64,000 nt of DNA, taken from the NCBI GenBank assembly GCA_905178155.1, contig CAJINV010000006.1, forward strand, positions 3,408,437 to 3,472,436, given 5' to 3'. Source of the DNA: Amoebophrya sp. A120 (lineage: Eukaryota; Protista; Dinoflagellata). Every line of letters starts with the position of its first letter. The stretch's first letter is position 1. Of the stretch, positions 7,083-40,000 are shown in pieces. The translations under genes were made by a program, and so were the position numbers. The notes beneath the pieces were generated by a model. It ran no database searches. It was not told the origin of the DNA and was given only the letters and a program-made list of their open reading frames with translations.

Positions 7083-10000
7083 ATGGCAACTGCGAGGACT
7101 ACAAGAACCTCGCAGAAAATTATGTCGTTCTTTAGTCAAGGTCAACGCGCTCGAAGCTTCTGTCTGCTTTTCGTCCTGCTGCAAGCGTGGTGGTGGTGGT
7201 TCCTCCTGCTTCCTTCAGTCCGCGCTGATGTGGAGGCTGTAGGAGCAACTGCTTCCAGCAGTTCAAGTTCTGTGGGACGAGGCACTGCTGTTGCGAATGA
7301 AGATGATGGTCCTGCATCCGCTGCTGCTTCTGGACCACCTGGCGTCGATGTTGAAACAAAGAGCGCTACAAGGAGGAGCGACGTCGATGATATCAAATCC
7401 AAACCGGAAGCACAAGCACAAACTGCAGACGTCGCAGGTGCCACCGAAAACCAAGACGACAACGACGACCTGGAAGGCCCTCTGCCCGACCGGCCGGAGC
7501 CCTGGAACGACCGGGAAACTTGGTACCAAAACGAAGATAAGCTCGATCTAGAAGAGGAACAGCAGGCGTTTAACGAGGACAACGCGATAAACGATATTGT
7601 GGACGACGAGGACGACGTGAGTGCTGCCAACTTGGACCACGACCAGCAGCAGTCACGACAACCAGAACGGGCGACACAACATACTCCTGCGGGCAAGAAG
7701 ATAGAAGATGAAGGGCAGGAGGCGCAAAAACATCAAATAGACGGCCAGTCTTCCCTGTTAGAGGTGCAGGAAAAAATAAACAAGCAGCGCTTAAGCAGGG
7801 CAGGTGAAGCAGACAATAGCGAGGTGGGGGCGGGTGACGATGGTACTAGCAGTACGAGGAAAAATATGAAACCCCGTCCGAAAAAAGGCCACCTGGACAA
7901 GATCTTCAGTGACACGATTGACGAGATTTCTGAGCAACTGCCAAAAGACGAGTTTGAACTGGAGAAGCGAGAAAGCGCGCTCATGGATTATCAAATGCAA
8001 AAGTGTCTGGGTCTGGAAGATTGCGAGATTTGTCATGCTTGTGTGGCATGGCCAAAAAGTTTGTGATGCCTGTCCAAGAAGAGACCCTTTTGCCTGTCAT
8101 GCCAAAGCGCAGTTTGTCATGCGAAAAACGCAACACAGATATTTCTCATGCTTGGCTGTGCATTACAGAGCATCTACTATTCCCAACGCAGCATTACAAG
8201 TTTCCAGACCCAGACATATTTGCATTTGATATGGATCTGGTCAGCCTGAAATCCGATCTGGATCGCGACGTGGTGAAGAAAACCTCTATGCATTGCGAAA
8301 GTGTCGCACTCGTATAATGAATGCATTACAAATTTCTTCAGCATGAGAAATAAAATTTGTAATGTGGATTTACCTTATGAGCAAGATTTGTAATGCGTGT
8401 TTGCGATTTTTACTACGAGTGCGATGCTTTTGCATAGGATAACCTCGCTCGTCGAGCAAGACGCACAAAACCTCGACAACGACCTGCATAATCTGAAGGA
8501 AAAACAGGAAAAGGAACTGGTTTTGTCGCTACTCTATCCTGTGAAAAATGAGTATCGTGCGCCTACTAATCGCAATCTTGAATGACAGAAACAGATCTAG
8601 ACCCTTACCTCAATCAACAAAAGCATGACAAATTCCCGTTCTGTTTTTGAAAAAGTTGGCTGTCATGCAATTTGTACCACACGCGATGCTTTTGCATTGC
8701 ATAAACCCCACGGTGGAATGGACAGCGGACCGGTGGGTCGCAACAGCGGAAGTGGGACGGGTGAAACAGGCAGTGCTGGCGGTGGAACAGGCAGTGGCAG
8801 TGGCAGTGGATCAGCCTATCCCGTGCAAAAGTATCGCACTCGTACTAGTTGCTTTTTTGCATGACGTATCTTCTTCCTTAGGCTTAGCTAAACCCAATAA
8901 TTCAGCTCTAAATATTTCATTTATCACGCTGTCTGTGCAAATAATTTCTGTATGCAACTACTACCGTACCACCGCGATACAATACTTTTGCAATGCATAC
9001 AGGCAGTGGATCAACATTTGTGCAGCTAACAAAGGAAGACATCGAGAACTGGAGGCACCGGTATGGGCACTTCGTGTACCGCACCCTTTCCGCTGCCGAT
9101 CAAGCCAACGCACCGCAGAACGACTTGGAGCAGCGTGTCTTTCGTCTCTGCGAGCACATGGAGATTCGACCGCAGGAGTTTGATAAGCAGAAAACAGCCA
9201 ACTTCTACGCAAAAACGGTAGCGCCAGCTGGGAGTGGGAGACAGAACCAGCAGAAATCATCGTCCTACATTCAAGAAAAAGAAAAAGCCGGGCAAATGGG
9301 AGCGAACGCCTTCGGCGAGGATGAGGAGGAGAAAAAGCTGAATAGCTCTCCCCTTGTCGACATTTGGTGCAACTTCAAGGACGCTGAGTTGTTGGACGCG
9401 GATCGGTATCCTGTGCAAAAGTATTGTACTCGTAGTAATTGCTGTCATGCATTACAAATTTTTTTTTCTCATGCTGAGGAAAAATGCACTTTTAGGAGTA
9501 CGAGGATACTTTTGCAATGCATAATCGGGCTGCTGATCCCGAAGCAAGGCGACCGGAAATTGTCCCCATTCCCGCCGTATCAACTGCAAATATCGCTGGA
9601 TGTCTGGAAAAGTGTAAACTTGTCATGGAGGTTTTCCATGACCCATGAGGTCTGGAATGCGGGGCCTAGCATGACAGACTCTGTGAGGTCTTTGCCATGC
9701 CTATCCTGCATGAGAAACTCCCTCCCAACTCGGTCGACAGTGGACAGCTTTTGGCATTCATGCAACACAGATTTTTGCGTGATTCGGATTTAGCATGGCA
9801 AGTTGGCACTCTTCCAGACCTCCCAAACATATTTGCAACGTATACGCCGCGAGCCTGGACGGAACGCGTCTGCTGCATCCCCAGGACGCACTGAAAGACG
9901 TGAAAGAGCTCCGGTGGGACGGGAAGAAGCGCCTGTACACCATGGTTTCCAAACACGGGAAGCCAATCGCGAAGTTTGAGAAGGTGCACATCCCCTACGG

Positions 10001-13000
10001 TCTGTGGAAGATGGATTTTTCGCAACTCGCGCCCATAGACCTACGACAGTGCACAACTCCCCCTCCCCCTCATTTGTCATGCAAAATACCGAATCCACAT
10101 CTTGCCTTTAAGCACTCGGCGCTTCACAAGTTTTGGACGCCCAAACAGGACTACATTCCATGTGCGGATTTGTCATGCAAAAGCAACATTTACATTTGTG
10201 GCATTGCTTCTGTTACTGCTCATGCTATACAAATGAGGGGGAGGGGGCGTTGTGCACTCTCATAAGACCAGATCAGTAACTACATCGAGAACCGCGGCTA
10301 CGATCTGCGGATGCTCATGCCCGCCGTGTATGAAAAAACGGGACGCACGGACAGCACGGTGTACCAGTACATGGTGACAGAAGCACGAGAGGCCGAAGAC
10401 GACATGAATAATCCTTACCCAAACATGGTAACTGCGCTAGCCAAACTGCAAAAAGAGTGCGAGTACGTCCTCATCCGACCTATCGAATGCAAAAATATAG
10501 CGCTGTACTAGTATGAATTGCATCACAAATTAGCTCAGCATTACAAATGAAACTTGCAATGCTGTTTTACCCTATAGGAAAGAGATTTGTCACGCATAAC
10601 AGCAATTACTACGAGTGCGATACTTTTGCAGTTCATACGCCCTATGCAACAGCAACACGCGGACCTCGAAACCGCATCCGAGGAAGAAGAAAAAAGCGTA
10701 CCTATCTACGCCGGTATATCCTATGTAAAAACGTACCCACCCCAGAGTTGTCATGCAGATTTGCCATGACAGGAACATTTGTGATGCGCAACCCCATAAC
10801 AGGCATTTTCAATCGTGTTTGGGAACTTGTAATGCTGTAAACAGGATCAGAAGGTCGATGTGTGATGCGGCTTTCCTTGCTAACTTGCACTACCTTACGG
10901 ACTGAAACTTGTCATGCGTGACTCCTAAAACTCCTAGGTTTGTGTTGCAAAATCCCCATCCTGACTCTGGTGTGGGTACATTTTTACTCAGGATACGGTA
11001 GTACCAGCGGCCCTCCCGCAAGTGGAAGTAGTCGCGCTGTCGGGAATGCGGCCCTGGACGCTGCGTTCAGCCAGGACGTGGCTTACTGTCTCCAGATATC
11101 GATTGCAAATATCCCTGAATGTCTGGAAGGATGCGAACTTGTAGAAATGCGTGTTCCGAATCAACATGCGACTGTCGCGCAGGACCTGCAAAAGTTGCCC
11201 AGTTCTGGTCATGATGAGAAGCCATTTTTCATTGCAGAATAATACACATCGCCTAGTGCAAGTAGGGGCTGCAGAACCTGTGAAGATCATGCTAGGCCCT
11301 GCATATTCCAGACTTGGCAGAGCTAGAGCTTGGAACAACTGCATGACAATAAATCGCGGAACCTTGTTCCAGACCCAGACACTTTTGCAGTTGATACCAG
11401 AGCGAATTATTTCGGAAGCGGACCAGAATTTTAAACTTCTCCCAGAACAAGCGCGCCGGGGTGGTGTTAGCAGACGTGTCAGTGGATGACATCGGGGCGG
11501 ACGCTGGGGAGGGAAAGACATTTAAATTTGATCCAAAACTTCCGATGGCATTTGTGTTGGCGTATGCATTGCAAAAGTCTCGTACTAGTATTACTCGCAT
11601 GACAAATTCATATCAAAAAGAGAACTGAAATTTGTAATGCGGATTGAGATAAGAAACCAGATTTGTCATGCATAACTGCGATTCCTACGAGTACGATACT
11701 TTTGCACAGGATATGGCGCCGCTACGAGCGATTCCGGACGGGTACGAGCCAACCTGGGTCAGTCGAGACTATCAAAAGTAAAAATGTCTGGGTCTGGAAG
11801 TAGAGCACAACTTTGTCATGCACATTTTCCATGATCCATGATATCTGTGATGTATGCCATAGCATCACAGACTTTTTGAGCGCTTACCTATGCGCATCCA
11901 GCACAACAAATGCCCTCTCCGCGTAGCCAAATTTGAGTCCTCTTGCTGGTCATGCAATACAGGTTTTCTGAGCATCCAACACATATATCGCAAAGTCATG
12001 CTTGCTGGTCATGCAATACAGGTGGACTGTACAGGCGCGACACATATATCGCAAAGTACAAGGAGGAAGAACGCGCAGCAGTCGTGAAGCAAATGAAACC
12101 GCTGCTGCAAGAACTAGAAGCGACAGCGAAGCGCGCCGACCTCCGAATTTTCGGCGGCGATATGAATGCCGAATTCTACGAGGGCGCCGACGGCGAATTT
12201 CTATTCGCTCGGGAGAAAGTAGCGCCAGTCATCTACGAGGAAGTTTTAGCGCCCCTCGCTCGCCTAATGTCCCTCTATACCAAGTACCGCTGCCCGGCAG
12301 GCCCGACCTGCTTTCGGACCACACCCAGACGGATTGACTTCGCTCTAGTAGGCGCCGAAGACGCAAACTCGCTCAAGGTGAGGCAGAAGCGGGCTAAGGT
12401 GCCGGCCAATTGGCAGTATGAGTTCGGCAAGAAGCAAACGCGCTGCCAGTGGCTGAAGGACGACGAGACCCCAGATGAAGCCGAGGCGGACCATCTAGCA
12501 CTCCATACAGTAATCCGGTGGAGGCCGACGAAGGACGAAACGGGGCAGGGAACAACCGGGGCAGATCGAAACAACATTGGAACAGCAGGCAAAAAGCCGA
12601 CAGCGTTTAACGCAACATACGCTGATAAAAAACCGGGCGGACCCGCGGCCACGGGCAGAGTCAAGGTCCTGAAGAGCAAGGCGGAATTCGAGAAGTGCGC
12701 CCCCTTCCCCGGCGCCATATCCTGGCCTAGGGGGGCAGCGAAGAAAGAACAACTGGCGCCGGTCCTCGAAGCCGCAGAAATGCCAAGCGCGTGCGAAGTA
12801 GGTCTCGACGGCATACAGAACTGGATCAGGGATCTTCTGAAAACGGAGTGCCCGCTGAAGGCAAAGAATTTAATGACCCAGCAGATGGAAGCATTCTACG
12901 GCCGGAAGGGGGGAAGGAAGGCGCACCAGAAAAAGACGCAGCAAAGCAATGAACCTGAGCAGACGGGCCCTGCCAGCACGACTGAAACAGCTGACGAGAA

Positions 13001-16000
13001 GGACACGCGCATGAAGAAGGAGAAGGCGCGTGAGCTACTAGAAAAATGGCAAGCAACCTACCCGAAACTTGAAGAAGACGACACCGAGGACAGCATCTAC
13101 AAGAAAGCAAGAAGGGTCAGGAAGCTAGTAACGGGGCAAGCGCGTGGCGAACTTGCAGGCGAGCTCAGCAAGATCAACATAGGCACGAAAGAGCAGCCGG
13201 ACTGGGTAGAAGGGACGGAGAAAGTGACAGAGGAGGTCGCTTTCTATCACCTACTCAAAAACGAACTGACTCGGGCTGCCGAAGGCCTCGGGCACACGTT
13301 CAACAAAGTCGAGTTCAACAAAGCTTTCCAGCAATTAACGGACGCGTCGGAACACGTCCCGGAGATCGTCACTACTGGGCCACAGTTACGTAAAACCCTG
13401 GGTAGAATGAATGGCGAAGCCGCCGGCGCCGACGGAATGCGCGTCGAGGGGCTGAAATCCCTCACCGACAGCCAACTGCAGGAAGTTGCTGCAGGAGTGA
13501 CTGACTTCTTGCGGAAAGTCGGCAAGGCGATTAACTCCCCCGGCAACATGAGCCAGCTCATCCCGCACGCGCTTACAGTGCTGCAGGTCGAGATCCTGAC
13601 GAAAGCGTCGGGGCCGATTACGGAGGTCAGCAAATTCCGCGCCGTTATTAAGAACACCCCAGTAATGAAACTCCTAGTAAGCCACCTAACTTACATTGCG
13701 ACGCGAGTGGCCGACATCAATGACGTTTTCACCCGGTGCGGCGCAGCTGGGAAGCCGGCAGCCTCCTGCACGCTCCAGCTGCTAGAAGTGCTAGAGAGTT
13801 GCCACGGGGCCGAACTGAGCGACGGCTACGACGGCAAAGACGAGACAAGCAAGAACGACGGCGATCAAGGAGCAAAAGCAGTAGCAACCGAGCCACCGAC
13901 CGCGAACGGGAACACGGGAGGAGAACAGACCACGGAGGAGAGCCAAAAAGAAGGAGCGACGGCAGGCAAGAGTAGTAGCAACCTATCCACAGAAGCAGCA
14001 GAGGCAGCAGTTGAAGTAATCGACTGGATCAAGCTCTTAATGGGCCTCGACGCTAGTAATTTTTACAACTGCCTGACGTTGCCGACAGCCGTGCGGTGTA
14101 TGAGACGCGCTCGCTTGCACCCGACGTTTATCAAGTTGATCATGCTCACTACGTGGTCGAAGAAGATCTTCCTGAGGAACGGGAACCACTACGGCGAGGT
14201 CAAAGCACATCGCGACCTCATCCAAGGCTCCGTAGAGTGCATGCTAATAGGAACAATCGTCTACATGGCCGGGGTGCAGAAGGTGGCCGAATTCTTCGAA
14301 GAGTGCTACGACGAAACAGGTCGAATAGTAGCAGGCAAAATCGACGGCGCGACCCACAAACTGCGAAGGAGTATCAGGGAGCTCTACAAAGGCGACAACG
14401 ACATCGACACGTCCTTCCCAGATTACAGCACGAGCGAAATTGACGAGCTTTGGTTCGATGCGGGATCGCTAGGCGGATCGACAACAGGATACCGGCGGAC
14501 ACAGACCTGGAACAAATATCGGAAGGTGTACGTGCAGACACATCAATCCGGAAAGCTCCAGAGCCCGGAAGAGCCAGCGCGGCAGAAAACTTCCTCAGCG
14601 CTTCAATTTGTCGATGATGGGACCCTTTGTCTCAGGTACAAACCTGCAGACCACGCACTAGCGTTGCGACTACTGAGTGCTGTGAAAACGGTCTACGAAG
14701 ACATCTACCGAAGTGAAGGTCAGTATCTTGCGCCGTTAAAGTGCGAATACGTTTTTTCCGGAACAGCAGAACAGTCGGAGCAGGTCCGTGAGGTTTTCTC
14801 CCCATTCGGGATCGAGTTCAACGAGAAGAAAGCTGCGAAGATCTTGGGAGTGACAATCAGCCTGAGTAGTATCGACGAGCAGCGCGCGGCACTTAGGACG
14901 CAAGTCAGAAGAGCGATCGGGACGGCACAACACCACACGGAACAGCTGATGGTCGCGCAGCCCCGGATGGACGGCAAGGAACTTCGAACAGCAGTGCAGG
15001 TCTTCTTCCTCTCCCCGCTGCTTTACCGATTGCCGGCTATGCATTTGATCTTCAAGCCAGAGGACTGGACAGAGCTACTGACAGACATTTCGTTCGGCGC
15101 AGCCAGGTCGCTGGGCTTTAGCTGGGAGGCCATAGCAAAACTAGCGGAGAAGGCAAAGACCGGAGGTGGCGAGTTCTACCGTATCATCTTCAGCGAAAAC
15201 GTTCTGGCTTTGGTCGACCCGTATCTGCTAGGCATCAAGATTCTACGGTCAGCGGCGCAGGCTGGGTACTTGACAGATCCCGACAGATTGATCAAGTGGG
15301 CGACCTTTCCGATTTCTCTTCACGGAGCAACGAGCACAGGTCTGACAGAATCAGACGCGGCTGACATCGACGACAAGAACCAGGCCGATGTCGCGTTGTT
15401 GGACGCAGCGGCAGCAGGCGCGTCAACGAGGTTGCCACCAGCAAGTGATCTACGGTGCACGGGGTTCGTCCCGGATCGTTCCGGGCTCAGTGAGGAACCC
15501 TCACAGAGAACCGCCCACCGCCGCCGCTTCTTTAAAATCGAAGCCAATAATGCCGGTGATGGAATCGCATGCAGTGAGACGGACATCCTCGGGACAGTAG
15601 TAAGGCCGAGCGTTTTGCAGGTGAAGACAGTGCGAACACACCTGAGGACCGAAACCGGCAGGAAGGAACAGCGGGCAGCAGCATACATCAACAACGCCTT
15701 GTATGCGATGCCATTGCTGATCCAGGAACAACAGTCGGATGGAGGAGAAAGCTTCGTAATTTCGCTAGAAAACTACCAGACACTTCACGACGGAACAAAA
15801 GGACCGATCCGGAAAGGCCAAGGGATCGCTTTGGACCTGGTAGAAGCAATCGAGGGACTACAACTTCTAGGCCATCGGGTCCTGCGAAAAAACAGCCAGA
15901 ACCGGACGGAGCTAAACGCGGCGCAAGGCGTGCATGAGATCCCCCTCAGGTTCGTCAACATCTCCGGACATGACAAAAACATGGACTGGCCGATCTATGA

Positions 16001-19000
16001 GTTCGGTGAGGAACTATTTGCGTTCGGACCGGTTTCGACCTGGCAACGGATGAGCAAAAAGGAGCGCGGCGCTTTCCTTGCCCAGGCCCTAGGAGTAGAA
16101 ACAGACGAGGAGGCGGCAGAGCGGGCACGAAAAGAACGAGAAGCCGAGAGAACACAACCCCAGCCCAAGGCGCCACAGGGGGCGAGTCAGAGTAGCGGGA
16201 CTGCCGGAAAAAAGTCGACTAGCGGCGCAGGACCAAAGAAAAAACAGGCAAAAGCGAAAGCCCCGGGGCCTGCACCACCACAGCCGGTAGGAGAAAAAAC
16301 ACCGCCACCAAAACGCAGGAGGGTTTCAGAGCAGTCGGACGACGACGCAGGCGAAAAGAGAAAGCCCAACAGAAAAGCACCACCAGCGCCGGCAGCCGCG
16401 GCAGAAGAGCAACCAACAGCAAAGGCCCCGACACAGAAAAAGACAAAGGGCGCGGCTGGGCCGAAACCGAAGCCACCAGTAGCCACGGCAGCAGGAAAAG
16501 CCCCAGCAAAAGCTCCGGAACAGAAAAAGGCGAAGGGGGCTGCCGGACCGAAGCCGAAGGCAACGGAAGCCAAACCGCCGCAACCCAAGGCGGGCGGAAA
16601 GAAGAGATCTGCAGAGGAGGCGGAGGCGCTCCCGGGTGTGGCAAGCAAAAAACAGAAGCAAACCAGCAAAAAACAGGAGGAAGCCAACCCAGCGAGAAAA
16701 AAGCCACCACCTAAACAGAACGAGGCGCCGCGACAGGCCGCTAATTCCGCAGCGGAAAACACCGCAGAAGCGGCGCCACCGAAGAGCGAGCAAGCCGAGA
16801 CACGGAAGACCCACGGAACAGAGCAACTGGCTACGCAGGGAGATCGGGAGGACGCGAAACCTGCAAACGGGCTCGGCGGGAGGGCCGAAGCAGAAAAGCA
16901 GGAAACAGCGGCAACAGAGAAAAGCAAGGCACAACCGGCGAGGCCGGGTGCCATGTTTACGTCGACGAGCCAGTTCTCGATGGTCGGTGACCTGTTCCGC
17001 GAACTGGAACGCAGCCGGAACAACAGCAACCAGCCAGCCTCTCACTCCTCCTCAGCCTCTTCCTCCTCGTCCGCAAATACGAAAGCCAAGTAAAAAAAAG
17101 AAGAAAAGAAGAACCCCACTCGTCGAACCCCGACGGATACCCCCTCAAGCCCATCCCTCCCCGCATAGTAGTACCCCTTACCTACATGAAGAGCGAGGGA
17201 CCTCGTAGCACCAGGCGGAATGGAAAATAGTAGCTACCCCCAGATGATAGCAAAGTAGCGAACGACGACCCGGAGTGCGCAGAATCGGTTGTAGACATGG
17301 CGGCAAATCGACCGACGAAAAAGAGCGCGCGAGATAACCACACTGAAACCAAGCAGACACCTGACTGACGTTTTGTACATATAGAGCTGCACAAAGATGA
17401 AAAAAAGAGAAAAAGGAAAAAAGCGCAAGCCGTCCGGCGGGGCGGCCGCTCCTATCCATCACACATCGGAGCACTCGATGTTCCTGCTCGGTCCCGGCGA
17501 CGACGAGGGGTAGCGAGAGCCACAGCACGGAGCGACACAGAGGAAAAGAGAGTAATCCAAAAACGCATGGCCTCACGTACGTACACTTCTGCACTTTTGT
17601 CTTTGCTCCCCGAAAGGGGGTTTCCTGTGGGGGGGGGGTGCGGGAAGTCTAAAAGCAAATGGAACGAAAGCCGCCTGCAAGCGAAGCGATCAAAAACCAC
17701 GGCAGAAGCGATGTCATGCGGGTGATGTGGTTCAGGGGCGATTGCGATCCCCCATTAGGCATGGCGATAGCAAGGGCGTTGCACGACGCGAAGATCTGTC
17801 ATGCAGTTTGAACGTGCCAGAACCAAGCCCCACAGTCAAGACGACAACAGCGGCAAAGTGATCAGCCTTCGGGCGTGCGCGATGCTCGTTCCATCTACTT
17901 TTTCGACGATTCACTTCCTTCACCAGGGCCTTGCTCAACCCTGGACCAGAACGAGTAGGACCAAGGACCCAAGAGGTAGGCACTGTAGCGGAAAGTTGGA
18001 GCAAAAAAAATTTTTTTTGAAAAAGGACCCAATAGGAGCCGACCTGCGTGGATGGTTATAAAACAGGTAGCCTGACCCCAAATGGCAATGATCATTGGGA
18101 GCAGCAGAGCGCAGCAGGACCCCGGGACTGCAACAGCTCACCCCTGTTTTAACTTAGAATCACGCAGTGCTCCGAGTATGCCACTACCTCGACCCCTCAA
18201 GAAAAGAAGTAGCCCCCCCAACTACAACACCGCCGTCCGCGATCAGGATACGACTTGTACTAACCAACATTGTACCAACCGAGATCCCGCGGGGCGCAGG
18301 GTCTGGGCGGCTCGAAGCAGAACGCGCAGCACAAGCGGGAGACAACACATCCAAAGGTGGGGATGGTCTCAGGTCGTTCAGGTCCGCCAAGGGTTGCGAC
18401 GCGCTATCAGGGTTTCGCCAACTCCGCGGGGGCGTTGCGGGTAACTCCCTAAAACACCAAAACCGGCAGAAATTAGGGCCGGCAGTCCGGGTAATTGCTC
18501 ACCAGTCGTTTTGTATGACGAACCAAGAGGTGCAACGCGAACAGATAGGCATGAATTTAGCATCTCCGGCTGGTAGAGCAATCGGCTACCGAGGTACGTC
18601 AGGGGGCGTAGCTACATCAATCAATCCAAATGTAGCATCACAAGTTTGGCTCTTCCAGGCCCAGACACTTTTGCATTTGATAGAGACGCGCCAAGCACGA
18701 AACTGTACCCCAGCGACATTGGCAGCGAGAAACGGGAGCGAATCGACGAGGACGCTCACCGATTGAAAACCATCTTCGCGCTATGGAAGTGTCAGGATCG
18801 AAATCATCAGAGTTGAAATAATTTGTGACGCATAAAACGATTAACCCGTTGGCGCCTTGTTTTCAAGTGGCGCATGATGACAAATTTGGGTAGAACTGAA
18901 ATCCAGTTTGTGATGCTGTTTCGGTAAGGAAGACGCCTGCTGTATTTGTCATGCTACTTTAGCAGCTCAATTTCTACCCCTCGACAGGCTTGCAATCTGC

Positions 19001-21183: not shown

Positions 21184-23280
21184 ATGATGACCTGCCAGCT
21201 CACCGTGCAGAGGACCAACACATGCCAACTCTTCGAAGAAAGAGCTCGACGAGTGGTTATCATGCATACTTACAATATTTTTTGTCCGGTGGTGTGTGCG
21301 CACCACATGCAGCAGGAACGAAAATTGAGTGGCGTTCTAGGCAAGCTAATGCTAGAGCTAGTTGCACGAAAAATATATACAGGATCCTTCCAAATCAAAT
21401 GCAAGAGACCCAAATCGATCTTTACATTCGATGGCAAGAAAACGATTAAAACCACGGGTATCAACATACCCAATTAAGGAAGGGTGGAGGAAATCACGAC
21501 AGGAGATGGTCCCAGGTGGTCGTAAAAATCGCTACGCTTCTCGCCGAAGGATGAGCTCTTGACTCGATCCAGGGCCACCACGGGCCAAAGGCTCTGATGA
21601 TAGATAAAATTTGCGATGACAACAAACCACATGTGCGAAGATGAGTTGCAATTCTACATTACAATTCACTTTTTCCACGCCAACAGATGAAAATCATTTT
21701 CATCCCAGCCACTCTATGGCTATGGGCTCTAAGAAATCCACTCTCACTTCCAGTTTTCGACAATATTCGAGAGCCTATACACGAATCCAATCTGGTGCAC
21801 AACTACAAACAAGAAAATCACATAATTAATTGCTTCTTCGACTCACCACGATATCATCGATAGAGAAGATTCTGATTCATTTGATTGGGAAACATGAACT
21901 TGAGCACTTCTTTCTTGCGCCACACATTTCTCCTCATCATCCATCCAAAATCATCCATCTAAGTCTATTTCTCTATCCAAATCAATGGAGGTCATATTTT
22001 CTCTTTTGTTTTGATCTGGATCCAAATCCAATGAATCTCTTCCGAAAATGTCATGTTTTCTCTTCTGGGATAAAAATATTTAAAATCTCATCATAGTTCA
22101 TGGTTAGAATGACATTCATTCACATGGAATTTCGAAAATTAGAAATAACCGAAATTGATCTCGAAAAATAAAAATTTGGAAGATATCTTGAAATTTAAAA
22201 GATAAAATTCAATAATTTCGAAATGTAAAGAGAAATTCAGGGGAGATCTAAAGAGAAAAATCAATGGCATTTCTTCAATGAGACCAAAAACACACACATC
22301 ATAACATTCATTCTACACAGATCGAGATTAGATTCATTCATATTTTTTTTTTTTTCGATTCATTATGAAAATTAGGAATTTGATATATTGTGATCCGATC
22401 ATCCCAATCATTACAAACTATAACCAGAAACAGAAACCCAAACATGAAACCCAGATGAACATGAATACATCGACAAAATTTTTTCAAAAAAAATTTCGGA
22501 ATTCAAAATATATAATATAAATATTCAGGAATTCCAAGGCATATCCCACCTATGATCCTGTCCCTGTGATATAAATCGACATCAATTTTCCAGGAATTGA
22601 GACAAAAATGAATCAATAGAAGAGATTCTTTCTTTCTTTCAAAAATGAAAGAAATCCGAACATTGAAAGAAAGAAACAAAGAAAGAGATTCAGAATCAGA
22701 AGAAAATCAAAGAATATGATGATGAGATGATCCAAAACCAATTCAAGATCATAAGGCATTGATATCAAAAAAAGAAAACGAGAATCTATCATCCTTCCAG
22801 AATATCGATCGATGGTGTCACAGGATGATTTCAATGACGATGATTTGGATGTAGGAAGCTCAATCGAGATCAGAAATTGTAATTGAATGTGAACATCAGA
22901 AACAATAAGATAGAGTAGAAAATGGCCAGACAAAGAGCTGGTGCTGAAATCAAGAAGGATAAGATTTGTTTTTTTTTTTTTCAGAATTATCCGGCTGGCA
23001 AAGAAATTTTTGGTTTAGATTGACACAGATCGAGACTTTCAATTAGGAACAGGACAGGTTTATATTTGGATTGTTGAAGGGAAAGATAGTTTGTTTATTT
23101 TCTGTAGGACAAGACATTTGTTTATCTTTATTTTCAGTTTCATTTTTCAGAAATAGATGTTTATGAAGTTTTTCAAATTTCTACACCAATAGGTTATAGA
23201 TATCGAGGACAGGACAAGAGAGATCTTCATGAAGGATTTCTTCAGGGCCTTGAACATTTGACGCCATGCCCAGGCACGAC

Positions 23281-23323
<43 letters not shown>

Positions 23324-26412: not shown

Positions 26413-29400
26413 CTAAATCCGATCCGCGATGCTGCTCCGCGTGCAGCCGCAGCAGTTGGGGTGGTGCTTACCGTCAAACGCGACGCTATCCACTGCAAAA
26501 GTATGTTATTGCATTTATGCATTACAAATCTCTTTCTCAAGGTGAATCAGCATTACAAATCAAATTTGTAGTGCTGGGCTAATTTGTAATGCAGTTTATA
26601 CTAGTACGATGCTTTTGCAGTTCATACACGTTCTCCTTTGATGACTGTTTCGGGCAGTACAACCTATCAAATGTAAAAGTGTCTGGGTCTGGAAACTTGT
26701 GATGCTGGGTAGCGTTTCATGATGAGCCCACAAATGCTACCTCAGCATGACAAGTTTCTGAGTTTCTAGGTGTTGCCCATGCTGCATGACAAACTGCGTT
26801 TCTGCATCGCAGAAAAGTGGAGCTCTTGGGTAACGTGCATGACAGATTTAAGAGTCATGCCAGACAAGCATGACAAACATGCATTCTTCCAGACCCAGAC
26901 ATTTTTGCATTTGATACAACCTCCTGCAGCCCAACAAACAGCACCAGTACTCGTAGCACCCGTAAAACAGTCCCCGGGTGTATCCTGCGTAAAAACGTCC
27001 CCAGCCGCCCAGAGCTGTCATGCAGATTTGCAATCACAGGAACATTTGTCATGCACAGGCCCGTGAGAGGCATTTCCCGGTCGTGTGTTTTGAAATTTGT
27101 AATGCTGTAAACGGGATGAAGCTATGGGTTTGTGATGGGCCTGTCCTTGCTCAACTACCCTACAATACAGAGGGAAACTTGTCATGCGCGACTCCCGAAA
27201 CTTCTGCATCTGTCTTGCAGATTTACCAACTTGTTGACTATGGGGTGGGGACGTTTTTGCTTAGAATAGGGTTGGGCCGGTCAGCTTGTAGGTTTGGTTG
27301 TACTCCAGGTGCAGGGAGTGGATGTTGCGGGTCCGATCCGCGATACCCAGCCGGTCCCAGTAGTCACAGTAGTCGTCCCAGCACATCCAGAAAGAGCCAT
27401 CATCCTTCGCCACATGGATCTTCGCCTTGACCTGTATTGTGATTTCCACATCGACATCCACGCATCACAAACGCTGACTTGCTTGCAGCTCGTGCATGAC
27501 AAGCTTTTTCGAGTTTCTGTGCGACTGGGATATGTAAAACATGATTATCATTATGCACGTTCTGCATGACAGACAAAGCCGACCTGCTAAGTATAGTACC
27601 GCTGGAAACTCTTCCCATTTCGCCGAGTTGTCGCCCCAGTCACCTTTCCACTCACCCCCGCCCCACGGATTCCGGATTCGCACGAGCCTATCCTTAGAAA
27701 AAAGGGCTACAGTAGGTACACGTTTGTTGGAACTTCAGCAACACAAACTTGCTCGGCATGGCAGAGTAGAAAACTTGCAATGTTGCAAAGATTACAAGCG
27801 AATAAAACACATATGAAACGAGGCATCTACTAAGCATGTCCCGCATGACAGGACTTGTCTGCCTTGCTGGTCCTGCAACACTATGTGTAACTGTGACACT
27901 TTTTGCTGGGGGTAGAGCTTCAAATGACACGGGCCCGTCCTGGAGGATTCCTTGAATTCTTATCCACAGCAAATAATTTGCCGGACACGTTGTACAAATG
28001 CAGTTTCTGCATGACAAAACTTTTCTGTAATCCATCCTGTTCAGCACGACAAGTCGATGAATTCTCAACAAAGGTTGATGCCCAATTGCAATTTGTGATG
28101 CATTTTGTACGTCGTGCACGGGGACGAAAAATTTGTATTGCATAGCTCTTGCGCGTCGAGGATGGAGTACGCGTGCCCGGAAACTAATCCGTCCATCCGC
28201 TGCGCGCCATATGGATTGCAAAAGTGTCTGGGTCTGGAAGAATGCAAGTTTGTCATGCTTGTCTGGCATGACTCATAAATCTGTGATGCAGGAGCAGGAA
28301 AAGGACCTCTTGTCTGTCATGCAGAAACGCAGTTTGCCATGCGGAAAACGAAACACAAGAGCAGCTCAAAAATTTGTCATGCTTGGCTGCGTATTGGAGT
28401 GCGCCCACCAGTCACACTTTAGCATTACAAGTTTCCAGACCCAGACATTTTTGCATTTGATACGCCAGAGGCACAGAGCACCGACCCCCGCCGATTATGC
28501 AAGGCAAAAGAAACGATTGCGATGTGAAACATGCATCACAAAACTATTTCTCACGACGAAAAGTAGGATAAGGAAAAACAAAGAGGATCTGTCATGCAAA
28601 TCCTTGCATTGTCACTTTTGCCGAGGATAGCGGTTGTAGCGAAACAAAGTGTCCCACATCTCGTCCACCGAAAGCGTTTCGTCCGTGCCCTGCAGGGACC
28701 CGTTGCGCTTGTCCCTGAAAGAACAACAAGTTGTGTTGCAGAGCTACGACGAGGAAGTGGTTTTGACATGCACATCAACCATGATCAGCATCAGCATTTT
28801 CATGAAAAGCGAACGTTTACGTTGATGCTGTTCCTGCTCGTACGTAAGTACTATGTTGGAGTTGGTTTTCGATTATTTATACCTGGCCACCGGTCGCAGG
28901 CAGTGTCGGCACACTGGGTGCTTCGACGGATCTTCTTGATTCACGAAGTTTGGTATGGAGGCGTGACAAAGTTATCAACATCACCCACAGTTGTAGTTGT
29001 CGTGTCTCGGGACCACAAACGGAGCACAATCAAAAACGTCGCACCGTATGTGCTGGACCTTCACTGCCACTGCGCCGGGCTATCTATCTAGCGCGTCATG
29101 TGAAGCTGGTAGGGGCGCGCGTGTAAATACTATATCTCTTCAACGGGCGGCGGGGACGCGGCGCGGGGGCGAAGCGGCAGACTGCAGCGTAGCAAGGTCT
29201 TGCATTCTCGTAAGCGCGCCTGCGACGCATCAAATAGGCAGTTGCGCGGGCAGTTGCAAGGAAGGGCTGGGAGGGTTAGGCGCCATTCCGAATCGCGGGG
29301 ACTTCTCAGGAAGTGCATGTTTAGCCCGACCACGTGCAAGCGAACCAATACCAATGGTGCCCAGTGCTAGGACATAGTGGAAGAGGAGCTACGACTGCAA

Positions 29401-32400
29401 ATTCTTCATATGCAAGCTGCAGCTTGCTACTTTTCTGCAAGAATCGAAGTCGAATCTGAGTGAGCAGCTACGGAGGGAGACAGCTAGAACCGTGCGCGGT
29501 GAGGATTCTTGCAACAGCTGCACTTTCGTACCCCACCTCTTCCACCTGGTGCCGCCCGACTTCTCCTTGGAATACCACCGGCAGTGGTCCCCCGTCATCG
29601 CCCGCAGTGCCCAAATCGTGCTTCCCCCCTCCAGGTTCTGGTAGGATCCGCACAGTTTCTATCCAAAACAAATTTATTGCCGTCCACGATGTACAAATGC
29701 AGTTCCTCCATAACAATAGTTGTGCTGCAACCCTATTCAGCATGACAACTTGCATGCTTTGCCTGCTCGAGGAGATTAGATTTGTGATGCATTTCGTACA
29801 CTGTGCACGGGAATGAATTTATAGTGCATAGTTTTGCAAACGCCTTCTCCAGCAGCAGCACCCACAATTCCTCCCCGTATGCATTGCAAACATATGCATA
29901 TCGCACTAGTAGTAGGAGTCGCATTACAAATTTTCGCAGTATGACAAATAGAATTCGAATTTGTTGTAATGCTGATTTCGGCTTAGTAAGCACATTTGTC
30001 ATGCGGTAGTACCACGAGTGCGATACTCGTCTCTCAGTGGATACTCCGTTCGGCTGCGCAAATTTCGGCTTCGCCACCCCAGTATGCAGCGCAAAAGTAT
30101 CGCACTCGTATAAATTGCATTACAAATTTCCTCAGCATGAGAAATAAAATTTGTTATGCGGATTTACCTTAAGAGAAAGATTTGTAATGCATGGCTGAAT
30201 ACGAGTACGATACTACTTTTGCACAGGATACCCAGATCGCTCCCACGCGTCCCGATCGCACGGAATGTAGTCGTCGATGGTAAACACGCGCCATTTAATC
30301 CTCTAGAAAAGTTGTATCATCATCATGTAGTGGACACCCTCTCCCAGCGCCACAGGTCAAGGATCCCCTCCCCGGGGGGTGGGCGAGGAAGCGCTTTCGG
30401 CAACCTCATCATACAAAAGCCGAGCGCTACCACGGCAAGTCGCCCCAAGAAAAGTGCCAACCAGTCGGGAGCTACCCACCACACCTGATCAGTACAGCCC
30501 GGCCAGCTAGCCGAGCGCGACAGCCCAACATACAGAACGATCCAGGACCCGACCCATTTTACGCCATACGTTTTTGTTCTCACGGAAGAGACGACGCACC
30601 CCTTTGGGTTAAGGGGCGAGACTCTCCCCTAAGCCGCAGCCCCGCCCAGACTGGGGAGGCTGGACCGTTTGTGCCTTACCTGCGGCACGGGCGAACAGAG
30701 CAAGTGCACGGACCACAGTTGTCAAACCATAGACCAGTAGTAAGTGCGTAGTAAGTGCGTAGTAAGTGCGATATTGCATGACAAACCCATTTTCTATACG
30801 GTAATTTAGAATGAGAGATTCCATTTGTAGTCATGCTGAGAAATAAATTTGTAATGCGATAACTCCTACCACAGTACGATACTTTTCTATCTTGCGCCAT
30901 ACACTGCCCGCGACAGCCATCCGCGGTTCCGTCGAACAGTTGGATTTTGTACTTATTATGCATTGCAAAAGCATCGCACTCGTACTAATTGCATTTATGC
31001 ATTACAAATTTCTGTCTCAAGTTAAATCCGCATTGCAAATTTTGTTTCTCATGCTGAGGAAATTTGTCATGCGATTCATACTATAGTACGATAGTTTTGC
31101 AGTGCATAATTACCCCGCGGGTCCAACTCTTTGGTCAGAAACAAATTGTCAATGGCCCCGGGGCGCTCCGCCATGCAGGCCATCGCGGCCATCAGCCAGC
31201 AGTCGCCGATCTGGCCTTGCAGAATGTCCGTGGCGGAGATGCCGTCTTGGTACAGTTGCATGTTCGAGTCCGTGAGTTTCCCCTGGATCAGCGATTGGTA
31301 GAGCCGCTTGGTCATCGACGGTCGTTTCGGTTTCTCTGACTTGCCACCACCGCCAGCGACTTTGGATTTCTGTGGAAAATTTTGTTTTAAGTGGTTCTAT
31401 GCATGACAAACCAATGTGACTTGTCACTCCTGCATGACAAAAGCTCGCTCTGCATGACAAATTCTTCTATACCCCAAACTCCCCCGCTCGGAGCCACACC
31501 ACCTTCTCGTGTATCGTCGCCGCCTGGCCCAGTGTGTCAGGTGCAAAAGTAACGTACACTATGCTATGCAGCAATTGCAATATTGCATGACAGATCTATC
31601 TGTGTACGCTAATCAGCATAACAAAGTCCTCCATTTCTTATGCCAAGAAAACTTGTAGTAATGCAATTTCTACTATAGGTACGATAGAAGTTTTACGATG
31701 GATACTGTGCAGCACTGTCGCCTCCCACATTCCCAAGCGAACTCGGACAGGGCGGAAATTTATGGTCGACGTAACTCCAGGCACAGCAGGTCCAGATGAT
31801 CCCGAAGCAGCGGCAGGTCCAATCGCAGGCATGGCAGCAGAAGCAGCAGAACCGGTGGAAGGAACGCTTCAAGTGGATCCCGAGGCAACTGCAGCAGTAG
31901 ATCCGGATAGCGTGGTAGCACAGCACGATGGGGGAGAAAATGATGTTGTACAAACAGCACGCGTTGCCCTCCCGCGCGTCAAAGCAGCAGCAGTATTCTG
32001 AGCAAAAACGTTCCCATCCCAGAGTTGTCATGCAAAAACGCATGCTCAAAATGCTTCTCATGCGGATCCCCATGACAGGCATTTTCTCGTCGTGTTTTCG
32101 AATTGTAATGCCCCGATCAGCATGGTGGGTGCGATTTGTGATGCGTCTGAACGAGGTAAACAGGATGACAGTACGAGGTCGAACTTGTCATGCGCAACAC
32201 CCTAGGTGTGTAGATTTGTCTAGCAGATTTCCCATCTTGAATATGGGGGGGGGGGACGTTTTTACTCAGGATAAGCAGCAGTACTTCCGTACCGGGGTGG
32301 GTTCTTTCGTTTTCGGGTCGATGCCCATCTTCTCGACGTAGTCGAAACAGGTTTCCTATGACAGTGCACAACTCCCCCTCCCCGTCATTTGTATTGGATG

Positions 32401-32676
32401 AACGGCAATTACAAGCATCAGCAAGAATGCCGGTTTTGCATGATAAAGTTGCACTGCAGCGTAGTGCAATTGGGGATGCCAGAACTTGTCATGCAGACAG
32501 TGCCAAGAGGCAAAGGGTAGATTGGGTATTTTGCATGACAAATGCGGGGGAGGGAGCATTGTGCACTGTCATATTTCCCCCCGTGCATACCCCTCCTGGT
32601 AATCAAACTGCCCGCGCTCCTTTTCCGGGTTAGTGGACAGCCCGAGCTGCCGGGCCACCTCGCCCGGGGCGGCCAT
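26413..32676 (-). CDS. Calpain-family cysteine protease (CysPc) with Cys-rich N- and C-terminal segments; 15 elements plus several GT-AG introns
   Basis: YVDHKFPP, VWLRAGE, QGQIGDCWLMAA (Cys), TIDDYIP, ELWVLLLEKAFAKLCGSY..LEGG, GHAYS (His), IRNPWG (Asn), DDGSFWM. Exon structure at 28691-29530 not fully resolved. Confidence 0.92.
27432..27599 (-). other. Canonical GT-AG intron in calpain
   Basis: GCG|GTACTA...ATACAG|GTC joins EEFPA to VKAKIH. Confidence 0.78.
30083..30230. mobile_element. Introner/MITE family B (TIR about TATGCATTGCAAAAGTATCGTACTCGTA, about 150 bp); representative of 20 copies
   Basis: DR CCCAG. Others: 147-308, 2270-2430, 3405-5860, 8287-8441, 8535-8703, 8817-8999, 9407-9523, 10481-10637, 11563-11713, 20902-21065, 24918-25073, 26487-26626, 29878-30043, 30297-30901, 30957-31108, 31535-31704, 34846-35857, 51183-51330, 52933-53281. 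Confidence 0.93.
30316..30736 (-). mobile_element. Short non-LTR retroelement 3' fragment with (ATG)n tail, nested in a family-B element
   Basis: About 75 bp nearly identical to 51924-52000. GTAGTAAGTGC is triplicated at the other junction. Confidence 0.7.
31370..31472 (-). other. Canonical GT-AG intron in calpain
   Basis: GGG|GTATAG...CCACAG|AAA joins AGEFG to KSKV. Confidence 0.78.
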
Positions 32677-34088
32677 TTTGCGGTTTGTTGTAAGGGCTGC
32701 GCTAGTACCTACTATAACGGTACTTGTTCGGGTCCTGTCTGGCGGTTGTACCGATTACGTTTTTTTGTCGTCCTCCGACGACGCAAATCATACCAGGAAT
32801 CAATAGAACGACCGACCGACCGACGACGACGGGTCCAAGTTTGGACATGAAAGATGCACGATGGTTTCTTAATACGCTGACCTCCCAATATTTACACGGA
32901 TCGATCCTGCTGAAGGTCCGGTCGCTCTACTCTCATATCACTCCATCAATGTGGTTTTTGACACTGACGCACTCACATTACACACCTGAAAGCGCTGTCG
33001 TCGAGTGCTGGTGATCTCGTCTCCTCCGCTACTTCTTGTAGTACCAGGCCTCATGATGAAATTTCTCCAAGAGATGCTCAATTCTCTGATGACTTGGAGA
33101 CGATGACTTTTTCAATTTCGCCCAACGAATAAAGGAATCCACGACTACGAAGATTATTTAAGGCAAGAATCTTCAAACATGTGGAGTAACAAGAAGAGCT
33201 CCATCATGCGCCGTGATCGACTTCGACACAAGCACAACTTCATGTCATCTTTTTTTAGAAGCAAAACTGCTTCAGCGCCGATACTTTCTGCCAGGTCCTG
33301 TCAGCTGGAAGAAGCAGAGAGAAATGGTATGGGTAAAAGCCGCGCATTGATATTTCGTCCTGGTCCTCCTGGAGGGTATTTTCTCTTTCTATGAGTGCAT
33401 TCAAAAATAACGTCACAAGACGTTGATCCGCAAGTGGGGGTTGCATCTGTATCATACTTCGCAGCTATTCCTATTGTGCGTGCTACTGCTGTATTCTCGA
33501 GCGTCAGATTCTGAAACGGTTCTTCGCGTTGTATCATGATCATTTCAGATAAACAAGAATTTCAGGTGCTGGAAGCAGTTGGTAAAAAATACGGGCAGAA
33601 GAAGTAGAAGTCGTGATGTCATCGGTCGTGCAGTAAAACTTAAGGCAGAAATAGGTACAGTTGGCGCAGTTCGGCAAACAGAAGCATGAGAAATTTGTTT
33701 AAAACTCAAATCTACATCGTATGTGACTGGAAATAAAAAGCATTATGGATGAGTTCTTCTCCGCGTTGTTGTGGGTTTCTCTCTCTACCTAACAAGTTCA
33801 ACTGGTCGTGAATTCTGCACTAAAACTACTACCTTGACTGCACATGAGTGTTGAAACTACTGCAACCACTGTTCGGCGGTCGTGAAACCGTACGGAATAA
33901 GCTTAAACTTTCACCAGTTTTTATTGTGTTTTTTGCGATGATGTTCTTGACAGCAGGAAAATCATAACAAGAAAGTACATTATCATAAGTTGGACCGCAA
34001 GAAAGAGCCCGATCGCCACCTAGCAGGTACGAGGTACTACCGGAGGTATTCAGGAAGTTGCTGCCTCCGCGAGGAGACTACATGTAGC

Positions 34089-37000: not shown

Positions 37001-40000
37001 TTCTTCCGGACGAGGACTTCTCAAAGTGCTCGAAGAGGAGGCTCTACTGCTGCTGTCCGGCGCCGTCCTCGCAGTCAGGGCTGCCAAAGCTAAATCAATC
37101 TCTTCTTCAAAGCTTTTCCAGATTTCCTTTGCGTTGTTTCGCTTGTCGTAGTTGTCCTGCGTACGCCCCCCGAACACCGCTGGAGCCACGCCCTGTAGCA
37201 TGTTCTTGGGATCACCGATGCTGAAGAACGCTTTCACAAAAGATTCGGCTTTCTGGACTAGCTTGGCTCGGTGGAGCTCCGCTTCTTCTTCGTCGAGATC
37301 TTGGCGGATGAGTTTTGGTATGCGGTGGAAAAATTCAAAGAAAAAAAATCGAATGTGAAGGTCGTGGACTGCAGATTTTTTATCGCATGTATCTACTTTT
37401 GAGTAGGCGTGCGCCTGCGGGCCTAAATTCCGGTGGGTTGGTCGGTTGGTTGGTTGGTTTTGGACAGACGACATTTGACCGAATTTACAAAAGTATGGGG
37501 ACACGCCTTCCGGGTAGGTGCGCAGGACGTGTTGCAGCTGCAGGCAGTTGTCCTTCTACAGTCTGTCTAAAGTTTGTCTAAAGTTGCAACATAGGCAAAT
37601 TCGCACACGATTTTGCAAATTTGCAACTTTAGACTTCATTTTAGAAGAAGTGTCTAAGCCGAAAATTACCATGTCGACGTCAGTTGCGGCAGCTGCGAGG
37701 AGCAACTGACGATCAGGTAGAGAGCCAAGAACATGTTCATGATCAGGCTCATGAACATGTTCTTCCCTGGACCAAGCACATTCATCTTCATCATCATACA
37801 TCCATGATGAAGGTGTCGGCTTATTACACGTTCGTTCCCGACGAACAAAATCTATCGCGGCTTGCATCATGGGCAGGCATGGCCGTGCTTGGCGCCGATC
37901 AAGAAAAAAAGCACACAACGTGAACAGGAAAAATCTTGCGCCAAAGGACGGAAGATTTTTGCCTGTGCAGAACTCCCTGCCCCATTGCTCGCAGAATACG
38001 ACCAGCAAGAACAACTGCAACCCTAGAGATTGAGACCAAGATCCCCGACACCAAAACCCAAACGAAAAGTGTCTCGACCAATGTAAACACCCGGAGGTCG
38101 TCAAAGGTTTGCGGACTGGACAGCGCCCAACACAATGGCGACAACCCAGATGGCCCCACGGACCAGAACCACCCCAATCCGGCCACGCGATCCCCGAGGG
38201 CCACCAAGAATACGAAGCGAGGAAAATTGAAAAGGCCTCCACTTTAAGCCGTTAGATAGAACAAAAGACCGCCCCCGGGTCTCCCGCTTGACCCCCCCCC
38301 CCAATTGGCAGGTGGGTGGGTAGGTCGGTAGGCGTAGCCAATAGGCAAGACACGCTCGCCCCGCCCCCCCCCCCATCAGGCAGGGGGGGGTAGGTCGGTA
38401 GGCGTGGCCAATAGGCAGCGCGCGCTCCCTCGCCCCACCCACCCACCAGGCTGGTGGGTGGGTAGGTCGGTAGGCGTGGCCAAGGGGCAGCGCACGCTCG
38501 CCCCACCCACTCACCGGCAAGGTGGGTGGGTGGGTCGGTAGGTGTGGCCAATAGGCAGCGCACGCTCGCCCCACCCACCCACCAGGCTGGTGGGTGGGTA
38601 GGTCGGTAGGCGTGGCCAATAGGCAGCGCGCGCTTCCTCGCCCCACCCACCCACCAGGCTGGTGGGTGGGTAGGTCGGTAGGCGTGACCAGTAGGCAGCT
38701 GTCTCTGGATGGAAGCAAAGGGATAGGTAGGTAGGTAGGTCGGTGCAATCGCGGTACTACAATGAAAATGAATCGAAAAGACGCCAGGTAGGCGGGTAGG
38801 TAGGCAGCTTCAACAGTAATAGTAGACGAATCTCAGAAAAACGCAAAACACAACGCAGCGGGTTCGGTCAAATGTCGTCTGTCCAAAACCAACCAACCAA
38901 CCGACCAACCCACCGGAATTTAGGCCCGCAGGCCCACGCCTATTGCTACTTTTGTATTCTCCAAAGTACAACGCTCGTCCTGAATCATCATGCAGACTGT
39001 AGTCCTATTGTGTGCCAATGTCAGCAAATAGGAGTTTGCAATGTAAAGCTGCTCACGGTTCGATTTTACTCCTGATTCCTCCTTCCATACCGATAGCTGC
39101 TGCCTGTAAGGCCACTATTTCTCTCTTCGCTGCAGCTTTACTCAGTTGTGCCACCGTTTTTCTTTCCTTTCCGCAAAAACACTCGTATTCGATTTCGTCT
39201 TGAAAAATCTGCAACAGTTCTTGTTTCTGGTGTTCATCCGTACTTTCATCCGACGAAATTCCTTCCAGCACTTCCTTCTCAAAAAACCAGTCCACACTCT
39301 TCGCGTAGTCCAGAGCGGTTTCTTATCCAGGAAAAAACTACAACCATCCCCATCCATTTCATGCATGACAAACACAGAAATTTATACATGTTTTGCATGA
39401 CAAATTGGATGGGGATGGTTCGTTTTTTTGTGGATACCTCTTTGTCGTCGTAGAACTGTTCCAACAAGATTTTCTTCGCGGTGTTTTATCAACTGCAAAT
39501 ATGTCTGGGTCTGGAAGAGTGTAAAATTGTCATGCAGGTTTTCCATGACCACTGAGGTCTGGCATGCGGGACCTAGCACGACAGAGTCTGTGAGGTCTCT
39601 GTCATGCCTATCCTGCGTGAGAAACTCCCTCCCAACTTGGTCGAAAGTGGACAGCTTTTGGCAATCATGCAACACAGATTTTTGCATGATTCGGCTTTAG
39701 CATGACAAGTTGCAATTTTCCAGACCCAGACATTTTTGCAATCCATATGTTCAAATCTTTCTCAATTCTTTTCAATTTCAGCTTCTTCAACGGAAGTTTA
39801 TGCGCCAGAAACCGCGCGTTGAAGACAAAATTTTTCCCCGTGCCCTGGCAATCGATAAAAATAAACAACGCTTTCTGGTGCAGAGATTTGAGCTGGTTTT
39901 CCACTTTGATCAAGTCGCGTTCGATCCAGGAGATTAGATAATCGGAAAAACTGCTGGCGTTTTGTTTCCCGTTGATGAGGCGTTTTCGGTTTTGGAAAAT

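Follow-up and report, generated by a model that had tools for sequence, protein, structure and literature searches.

TAT-ended introners of Amoebophrya sp. A120 are absent from transcripts in both orientations and share one cut register that follows transcription

We analyzed a 64,000-nucleotide stretch of DNA from the marine parasitic dinoflagellate Amoebophrya sp. A120 (GenBank assembly GCA_905178155.1, contig CAJINV010000006.1, positions 3,408,437 to 3,472,436; called the window below), whose genes are interrupted by short elements with terminal inverted repeats (TIRs) that start with TAT and end with ATA. These elements are absent from RNA in both orientations relative to the host gene, all of their visible joints allow a single cut register, and their end bases are constrained in a way that follows the direction of transcription. 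Removal of the element plus five bases restores the reading frame. We consider RNA splicing with an N-T-A donor and an acceptor at a fixed distance, likely carried out by the spliceosome, to be the probable explanation. The elements themselves are the introners already described in 2021 for strain A120 (PMC7789003, Farhat et al. 2021; this and the other papers cited below are represented by partial texts, to which our statements on them apply).

At least 81 TAT...ATA elements were curated in the window, with 5-bp target duplications at their flanks. The set consists of 73 detector candidates, minus 5 weak ones (22077, 22341, 29675, 49744, and 54668), plus 13 recognized from BLAST ends or RNA. 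As a control, the detector reported 117 elements in real loci and none in 25 reversed loci. Element sizes range from 113 to 605 bases, and four longer ones hold nested insertions. The elements agree with the A120 introners in their TIR (TAT, seven variable bases, and an A run), in the direct repeat at the exon-intron boundary (3 to 5 nt for introners; 5-bp duplications here), and in forming repeated families that are absent from RNA at non-canonical sites. They also have the properties of miniature inverted-repeat transposable elements (MITEs), being short and multicopy, with TIRs, a target duplication of fixed length, and no coding capacity. Once the repeats were trimmed, the family interiors were polar, with a member matching its own reverse complement at 0.51 to 0.70. 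No Rfam covariance model, group I and II introns included, matched the window at its gathering score, and a search of viral contigs for the TIR pattern found none matching.

The host genes lie on the + strand up to about 21.7 kb and on the − strand from 23.4 kb, as judged from the long open reading frames (ORFs) that appear after excision. Cutting each element together with five bases gave a + strand frame of 975 codons across 14 elements (7041-19727) and − strand frames of 380 codons (23545-25349), 1,519 codons (39056-45098), and 435 codons over 10 elements (50369-54438). Pfam hits to Nas2_N and Peptidase_C2 on − exons, two GT-AG introns read on the − strand, and the annotated proteins P0001 (+), P0002, and P0003 (−) are all in line with these strands, which were correctly given in the original prediction, a note made from the sequence before this analysis. 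Single window exons match Amoebophrya sp. A120 proteins (P0001 at 99%, P0003 at 100%, and a third protein in part). P0001 carries the junction peptide for 10 of 10 elements of the first gene and P0003 those for 13 elements (47709-54339); both are annotation, not independent data.

The original prediction held that near-identical copies, written the same way on the + strand, lie in genes of both strands. At each of the 11 coordinates that it named, a TIR element with a 5-bp duplication begins, and five of its six pairs are indeed written alike in opposite-strand hosts. Full-length identity was 0.88 for 9578/39487, 0.87 for 2806/26665, 0.82 for 2806/53676, 0.77 for 1841/26981, and 0.82 for 18782/54024, and the same pairs reached only 0.61 to 0.63 against the reverse complement. 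At 0.77 to 0.88, these copies are family members rather than near-identical. The family E pair (3126/32357) did not hold up. It aligns better inverted (0.72 versus 0.65; internally 0.69 versus 0.59), and with hosts on the + and − strands, the two copies thus have the same orientation relative to their hosts; the palindromic ends misled the reading. Better than any of these pairs are opposite orientations within one transcript, namely 26665 versus 28210 in family B and 26487 and 30957 versus 30083 in family D.

In the window, 9 of 12 families occur in both orientations, one of the nine depending on element 6566, which is maybe intergenic. The majority-orientation total was 45 of 67, against 44.3 ± 2.4 expected at 50:50, in a count that includes the identical and possibly not independent elements 58573 and 60565. 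We tabulated orientation in a second assembly as well, where a pattern scan gave 131 loci that have only repeats in common with the window. Seventy loci were used, and the other 61 were left out as short or nested. These 70 held 447 elements, of which 346 had a firm host strand from a codon model and 101 were dropped as weak or discordant; the model called the strand correctly for 58 of 64 window elements, partly on its own training set. The 12 window families accounted for 263 elements, and 10 families occurred in both orientations, with splits of 30/39 for A, 17/24 for B, 7/14 for C, 22/25 for D, and 7/7 for E. No family of the second assembly showed a significant orientation bias (lowest p, 0.125). 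Sense and antisense copies are thus both tolerated, as had been predicted, and the split is nearly even. The intact element 6566-6781 falls in the gap that separates the first gene's RNA contig (6445) from that of the second (6933), and some copies may therefore lie outside transcripts.

Transcript evidence came from RNA contigs of three runs (X3 to X5) of one sample, with the RNA type assigned by guess. Since the same contigs lack two canonical GT-AG introns, we took them as spliced RNA. Each of the three runs covers the calpain-like gene (25834-32737) in one record of 2,401 to 2,422 bases, with 15 of 24 joints visible. Thirteen of the 15 skip a TIR element plus five bases, and the other two correspond to − strand GT-AG introns. 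Three further TIR joints, for 16 overall, came from contiguous pieces of the Nas2-like gene. For the + genes, removal is based on the arithmetic of record lengths rather than on direct joints: lengths equaled expectation in three cases (770 = 770, 622 = 622, and 490 = 169 + 321), and one record stops at 19549, immediately ahead of the following element, given removal of 11770 (6.9 kb), 18782, and 19183. A candidate single joint 31369/31705 was ruled out by a 57-nt exon between the two positions.

Removal was not confined to one orientation. Families B and D were out in both orientations from the single calpain-like transcript, family A was out both ways (9578 on +, 24542 on −), and so was family C (10717 on +; 26981 and 31994 on −). 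For family F, removal by RNA was seen for 18782 only. Among the elements named in the original prediction, 26665 and 26981 have direct RNA joints and 9578, 18782, and 32357 have exact length arithmetic; for 1841, 2806, 3126, 53676, and 54024 the evidence is annotated-protein junctions, and for 39487 it is ORF continuity. The principal features are as follows, where k counts, along the transcript, the duplication bases that precede TAT within the intron.

1841..2119, + gene P0001: family C introner; duplication TGCTG/TGCTC; junction peptide in P0001
2806..3067, + gene: family B introner; 3′ end altered (ATC)
3126..3352, + gene: family E introner; host-relative orientation same as 32357
3405..5860: family D introner; 92-nt tandem repeat nested inside; an RNA contig joins across it
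7989..8231, + gene: family B introner, opposite to 2806; removal by arithmetic (770 = 770)
8817..8999, reverse in + gene: D-like introner; RNA piece starts at 9004; k ≤ 1
9578..9844, + gene: family A introner; removal by arithmetic (622 = 622)
11770..18682: B-type introner with nested 6.6-kb insertion; removed whole; contig arithmetic ends at 19549
18782..19107, + gene: family F introner; removal by RNA length arithmetic
20902..21065: family D introner, reverse to 8287, 10481, and 11563 in the same + transcript unit
21118..21433, + gene: TAC...ATG-ended element; duplication GCAAT/GCAAG; k ≥ 1; 169 + 321 = 490
23601..23852, − gene (Nas2/PSMD9-like): family B introner; contiguous RNA pieces and Pfam
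24542..24783, − gene: family A introner; host-relative orientation opposite to 9578; removed
26487..26626, calpain-like − gene: family D introner; joint 26482/26628; k 1 to 4
26665..26916, calpain-like − gene: family B introner; joint 26657/26915; GT-AG register possible
26981..27268, − gene: family C introner; joint 26975/27269; no canonical register
27432..27599, −: canonical GT-AG intron of the calpain-like transcript; donor GTAC
27961..28144, − gene: family I introner; joint 27956/28146 with no shared letters; CT...AA; k = 1
28210..28462: family B introner, removed; reversed relative to 26665, with which it shares a transcript
28715..28882, −: canonical GT-AG intron of the calpain-like transcript; donor GTAT
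28954..29530: decayed element without duplication, weak stem; joint 28949/29532; GT...AA, i.e., G + TAC...ATA + 4
30083..30230: family D introner, removed; reversed relative to 26487 and 30957, all three in one transcript
32357..32573, − gene: family E introner, written inverted to 3126; arithmetic 507 = 507
39487..39747, − strand region: family A introner; ORF continuity; P0002 stops at 39801
53325..53629: family F introner, reversed relative to 54024; both in one acyltransferase gene
53676..53917, − gene P0003 (Acyl_transf_3): family B introner
54024..54339, − gene P0003: family F introner

For element 3405, the loose contig end at 5861 matches the exon preceding 3405.

The evidence for removal is from complementary DNA contigs only, and a hairpin with flanking direct repeats is a known setting for template-switch artefacts. 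We nevertheless find it scarcely credible that the joints are reverse-transcriptase switches across such hairpins: two joints share no letters, elements with weak stems are removed, conserved proteins need the removal, element lengths fall in all three phases (121/110/115), and the ends are under directional selection. The original prediction had also raised action on double-stranded DNA, which corresponds to excision before transcription, as of internal eliminated sequences in ciliates, by an enzyme that sees the double-stranded TIR. TA-type ends, symmetric TIRs, and the lack of orientation bias would suit such an enzyme, and rare element-free DNA is possible, with 1,345 joints outside those listed. 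However, DNA contigs of run X1 run from elements into exons at 19 to 25x with no other letters at these borders, so that the elements are present in this DNA rather than missing from a transcribed copy. Element-free contigs also lack the GT-AG introns, and register and end constraints follow transcription. We judge DNA excision to be very unlikely. Low-depth contigs (depth 3 to 7) retain an element border at 30579-30923. Two raw RNA runs, X9 and X10, had nine reads and one read matching the stretch; a few reads of X9, a run otherwise unmatched to it, show the repeat end of a family B element (7989-8022) with other flanks.

All 16 TIR joints allow k = 1, and no other register is allowed by all of them. 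The intron is then one base of the duplication, the element, and four bases. This register is forced alone at 27961, whose ends were set before the reads, and at 28954, whose ends were placed from the joint. In the + genes, 8817 needs k ≤ 1 and 21118 needs k ≥ 1, which is the mirror, on the + strand, of the pattern in − genes. From the annotated proteins, k is at most 2 at 147 and at 2270, and at least 1 at 40900. D-like elements are limited to k ≤ 1 in one orientation (8817 and 29878) and to k ≥ 1 in the other (26487 and 30957). The limits flip with orientation, which implies that the offset tracks transcription rather than the element. In gene models, the seeming variety of splice sites likely stems from the ambiguity of the 5-bp repeat.

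A GT/GC-AG register is possible in 2 of the 16 joints (GT-AG at 26665 and GC-AG at 27689), and none of the 16 offers one on the opposite strand. The original prediction would have been refuted had each orientation used cryptic canonical sites; the 14 joints without any such register, on either strand, do not show this. Introners of Polarella and Aureococcus do draw GT/GC-AG sites from duplication plus TIR, and G is the commonest +1 base here. However, only 10 of the 346 elements of the second assembly have a GT/GC-AG register compatible with the product, and the duplication bases showed no enrichment for G at +1 or AG at the acceptor in either the window or the second assembly. The unambiguous CT...AA and GT...AA joints refute cryptic sites as a general rule, and we attach almost no probability to this explanation. 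The TIR introns thus generally lack the U2-type combination of a GT/GC donor and an AG acceptor.

Because an element starts out with two equivalent repeats, changes acquired later reveal which bases are needed. In the window, the 5′ T and A were changed in 0 of 81 elements compared to 5 of 81 at their 3′ mirrors, while the third base was changed in 5 at the 5′ end and in none at the 3′ end (n = 81), a pattern seen post hoc. It was then tested in the second assembly (n = 346), where the 5′ TA had 0 changes versus 14 at the other end and the third base had 9 versus 1 (Fisher, 8e-6). Twenty-three of the 24 changes were in the predicted direction, with p = 1.2e-4 in a locus-level flip test, and the asymmetry was present in + and − hosts alike. 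In intron numbering, the constrained bases are T+2, A+3, and A−7. The 5′ TA was invariant in 427 of 427 elements (81 + 346), and U at +2 with a purine at +3, as in U2-type introns, was found in 81/81 and 346/346. A−7 was present in 81/81 window elements and 345/346 of the second assembly, with no consensus around it. By contrast, position +1 is under little constraint (G 105, A 89, C 87, T 65; n = 346), and AG makes up the last two intron bases in 20 of 346. The three RNA-supported canonical donors are GTAC, GTAT, and GTAT.

The original prediction had reasoned that spliceosomal signals are directional and that the recognized signal is therefore probably symmetric. Its placing of the signal in the symmetric TIR was borne out, and both orientations are removed. 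Its use of symmetry as an argument against a directional or spliceosomal reader was not, because register and conserved bases follow transcription. A machine that reads in one direction meets identical end sequences whichever strand of a TIR element is transcribed, and it thus treats both orientations alike.

The TIR stem itself, which had been proposed as the recognized signal, found no support. Selection on RNA pairing was not seen (G-U 265 versus A-C 283), in a comparison whose power is limited by the strong stems, and duplex energy was equal on both strands (−25.9). Elements with 6 to 9 of 20 end bases paired are still removed, as are those with weak stems (28954, 29878, 30297, and 31535). 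These results also bear on a non-spliceosomal RNA machine, similar to the one proposed for euglenids, that would bind the hairpin base, cut at −1 and +4, and ligate the exons, with the conserved U, A, and A as contact bases. Such a machine would require neither G nor AG, U1 was not found in A120, most copies have strong stems, and removal is complete even for introns of 2.5 and 6.9 kb whose ends pair. A Euglena study argues that terminal inverted repeats are needed there (PMC12501133), and a protein reader can be directional too. Yet pairing carries no selection signal, the sense duplex equals the antisense one, and the weak stems are removed; changes that break the third pair are tolerated at the 5′ side only, and the conserved +2/+3 bases are the same as in canonical donors. 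We regard this machine as unlikely, though deserving of serious weight. As a separate observation, TIR positions 4 to 8 often differ between the two ends (paired in 53 to 79% of the 346 elements), whereas positions 9 to 14 are paired in 88 to 99%; position 4 is almost always C or G.

Under the splicing explanation that we favor, both strands of an element would carry one and the same minimal signal in their inverted ends, to be read along the RNA by a modified U2-type spliceosome. The donor would be N|N-U-A, with +1 free and the rest similar to the GUA of canonical donors. A−7 would be the branch adenosine and would set the acceptor by distance, and if so, AG would not be needed. The long stem may help bring the ends together without being the signal that is read. 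The 1 + 4 split of the duplication would make an insertion silent at any target and in either orientation.

Several points weigh against this explanation. Neither G at +1 nor a final AG is kept, and the second step of canonical splicing uses both. The bases before A−7 do not form the U2-type consensus (−8 is G or C; −9 is T in 164, G in 121, and C in 60), and A−7 occurs in only one of the three canonical introns. With a median of −26.5 kcal/mol, the stems are mostly strong, and they may play a structural part. The RNA evidence consists of contigs from one sample of one study, with 15 of 24 joints visible, and the ends of 28954, 29878, 30297, 31535, and 21118 were set in part once the RNA had been seen. 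No U1 was identified in A120, although the strain retains most spliceosomal proteins together with U2, U4, U5, and U6 (PMC7789003). A more specific form, in which a U1-less spliceosome does without G and AG and requires just an N-U-A donor and an A seven bases ahead of the acceptor, is put forward tentatively, as a proposal that falls a little short of an even chance. If true, TAT (A120) or TTA (strain A25) inverted repeats would be ready-made silent introns at any target and in either orientation, and one rule would account for tens of thousands of "signature-less" introns.

The 2021 paper describes splice sites that are variable relative to the hairpin, with no clear signature (PMC7789003), and reviews repeat this for Amoebophrya introns. 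More than 60% of these introns lack GT-AG, apparently in the absence of U1, and their removal was unexplained in 2021 and in reviews of 2024. Table S4 of PMC7789003 lists nine predominant non-canonical patterns per strain, and 18 of 18 have T second, with assorted 3′ ends, as k = 1 predicts. The repeats of A25 begin with TTA and its patterns all begin with TT (PMC7789003), which fits the same N-T-A donor. Our elements resemble the published ones in TAT plus seven bases plus AAA, short direct repeats, non-GT-AG ends, and similar length; they differ in showing one register, directional constraints, and no orientation bias where variable sites were described. In the available text of PMC7789003, "orientation" is used in the contexts of genes and read mapping, and the T at +2 in Table S4 goes without comment. 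Neither orientation independence nor a fixed register for Amoebophrya is stated in the literature searched, as far as its partial texts go; Figure 3 and Figures S19 to S25 of PMC7789003 may show part of this.

Related systems share some of these properties. The introners of Polarella glacialis and Aureococcus anophagefferens are likewise transposon-derived with target duplications, and several classes occur in either orientation (bioRxiv 10.1101/2020.10.14.339549, within which the Aureococcus facts are cited). However, theirs recruit GT, GC, or GA plus AG from the duplication or the element, their duplications are 3 to 8 nt, and classes 6, 8, and 10 are orientation-biased (bioRxiv 10.1101/2020.10.14.339549), whereas we found no bias and no need for G or AG. 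Opposite-orientation introner insertions were allowed for in PMC9860276 and filtered out in PMC12130899. The nonconventional introns of euglenids also have TIRs, duplication-like flanks, no GT-AG, and a proposed MITE origin, but are reported to form circles without a lariat, to depend on the stem, and to carry CAG/CTG motifs (PMC11282704, PMC12501133); here, pairing carries no sign of selection and the conserved bases resemble donor +2/+3. In Fritillaria borealis, non-GT/AG sites correspond to the TIRs of non-autonomous DNA transposons and are handled by the U2-type spliceosome (bioRxiv 10.1101/2025.08.15.670264, PMC13326754). Those introns mostly have AG-AN ends inside the TIR, with U1 conserved and U2AF duplicated (PMC13326754, bioRxiv 10.1101/2025.08.15.670264), whereas here both cuts lie within the target duplication and U1 was not found. 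Fixed short distances from branch to acceptor are known in Yarrowia and Trichomonas, with a strong branch motif and AG (PMC2483917), both of which are missing here. Taken together, the elements, and two-orientation introners in other algae, are already known; here they take the form of a variant without a canonical site that follows a simple rule. One register and three constrained bases turn the question of removal into direct tests, and the rule would correct gene models. Should the mechanism be spliceosomal, it would show that the catalytic core can work with very little of the splice-site code.

Other features of the window were noted alongside. The insertion in 11770-18682 contains a 1,718-codon ORF (11937-17090, +) that resembles RVT_1/endonuclease proteins in an atlas search (score, 0.95), but no match came from Pfam or from sequence searches of the PDB. 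A related end occurs in locus L056 at 90%. The 92-nt tandem repeat in 3405-5860 has about 17 copies, with related sequence in locus L050. Nested material is also present in the long elements 34846-35857 and 48571-50184, the latter joined out in annotated P0003.

Between the + and − gene blocks lies a convergent strand switch (21700-23400), which is AT-rich (GC of 0.31 at 22 to 23 kb). P0002 switches frame at 40053-40081 and ends at 39801, while excision alone gives the 1,519-codon frame through 39056; the P0002 annotation may be wrong or may represent an isoform. Paralogous − strand genes at 57015-59700 and 60239-62298 share an identical element (58573 and 60565) as well as 300 identical bases beside an N gap (60328-60520), and the pair is either a recent duplication or an assembly artefact.

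Almost every family carries the motif TTGT[ACG]ATGC, on both strands. In the window, 171 of its 195 copies fall within short elements (18.5 kb in all), and several others are in canonical GT-AG introns (1471, 27462, 27494, and 31401-31452). Its density across loci L001 to L074 is 8.4 per kb inside elements versus 0.5 outside. It may serve as a transposase site or mark introns irrespective of orientation.

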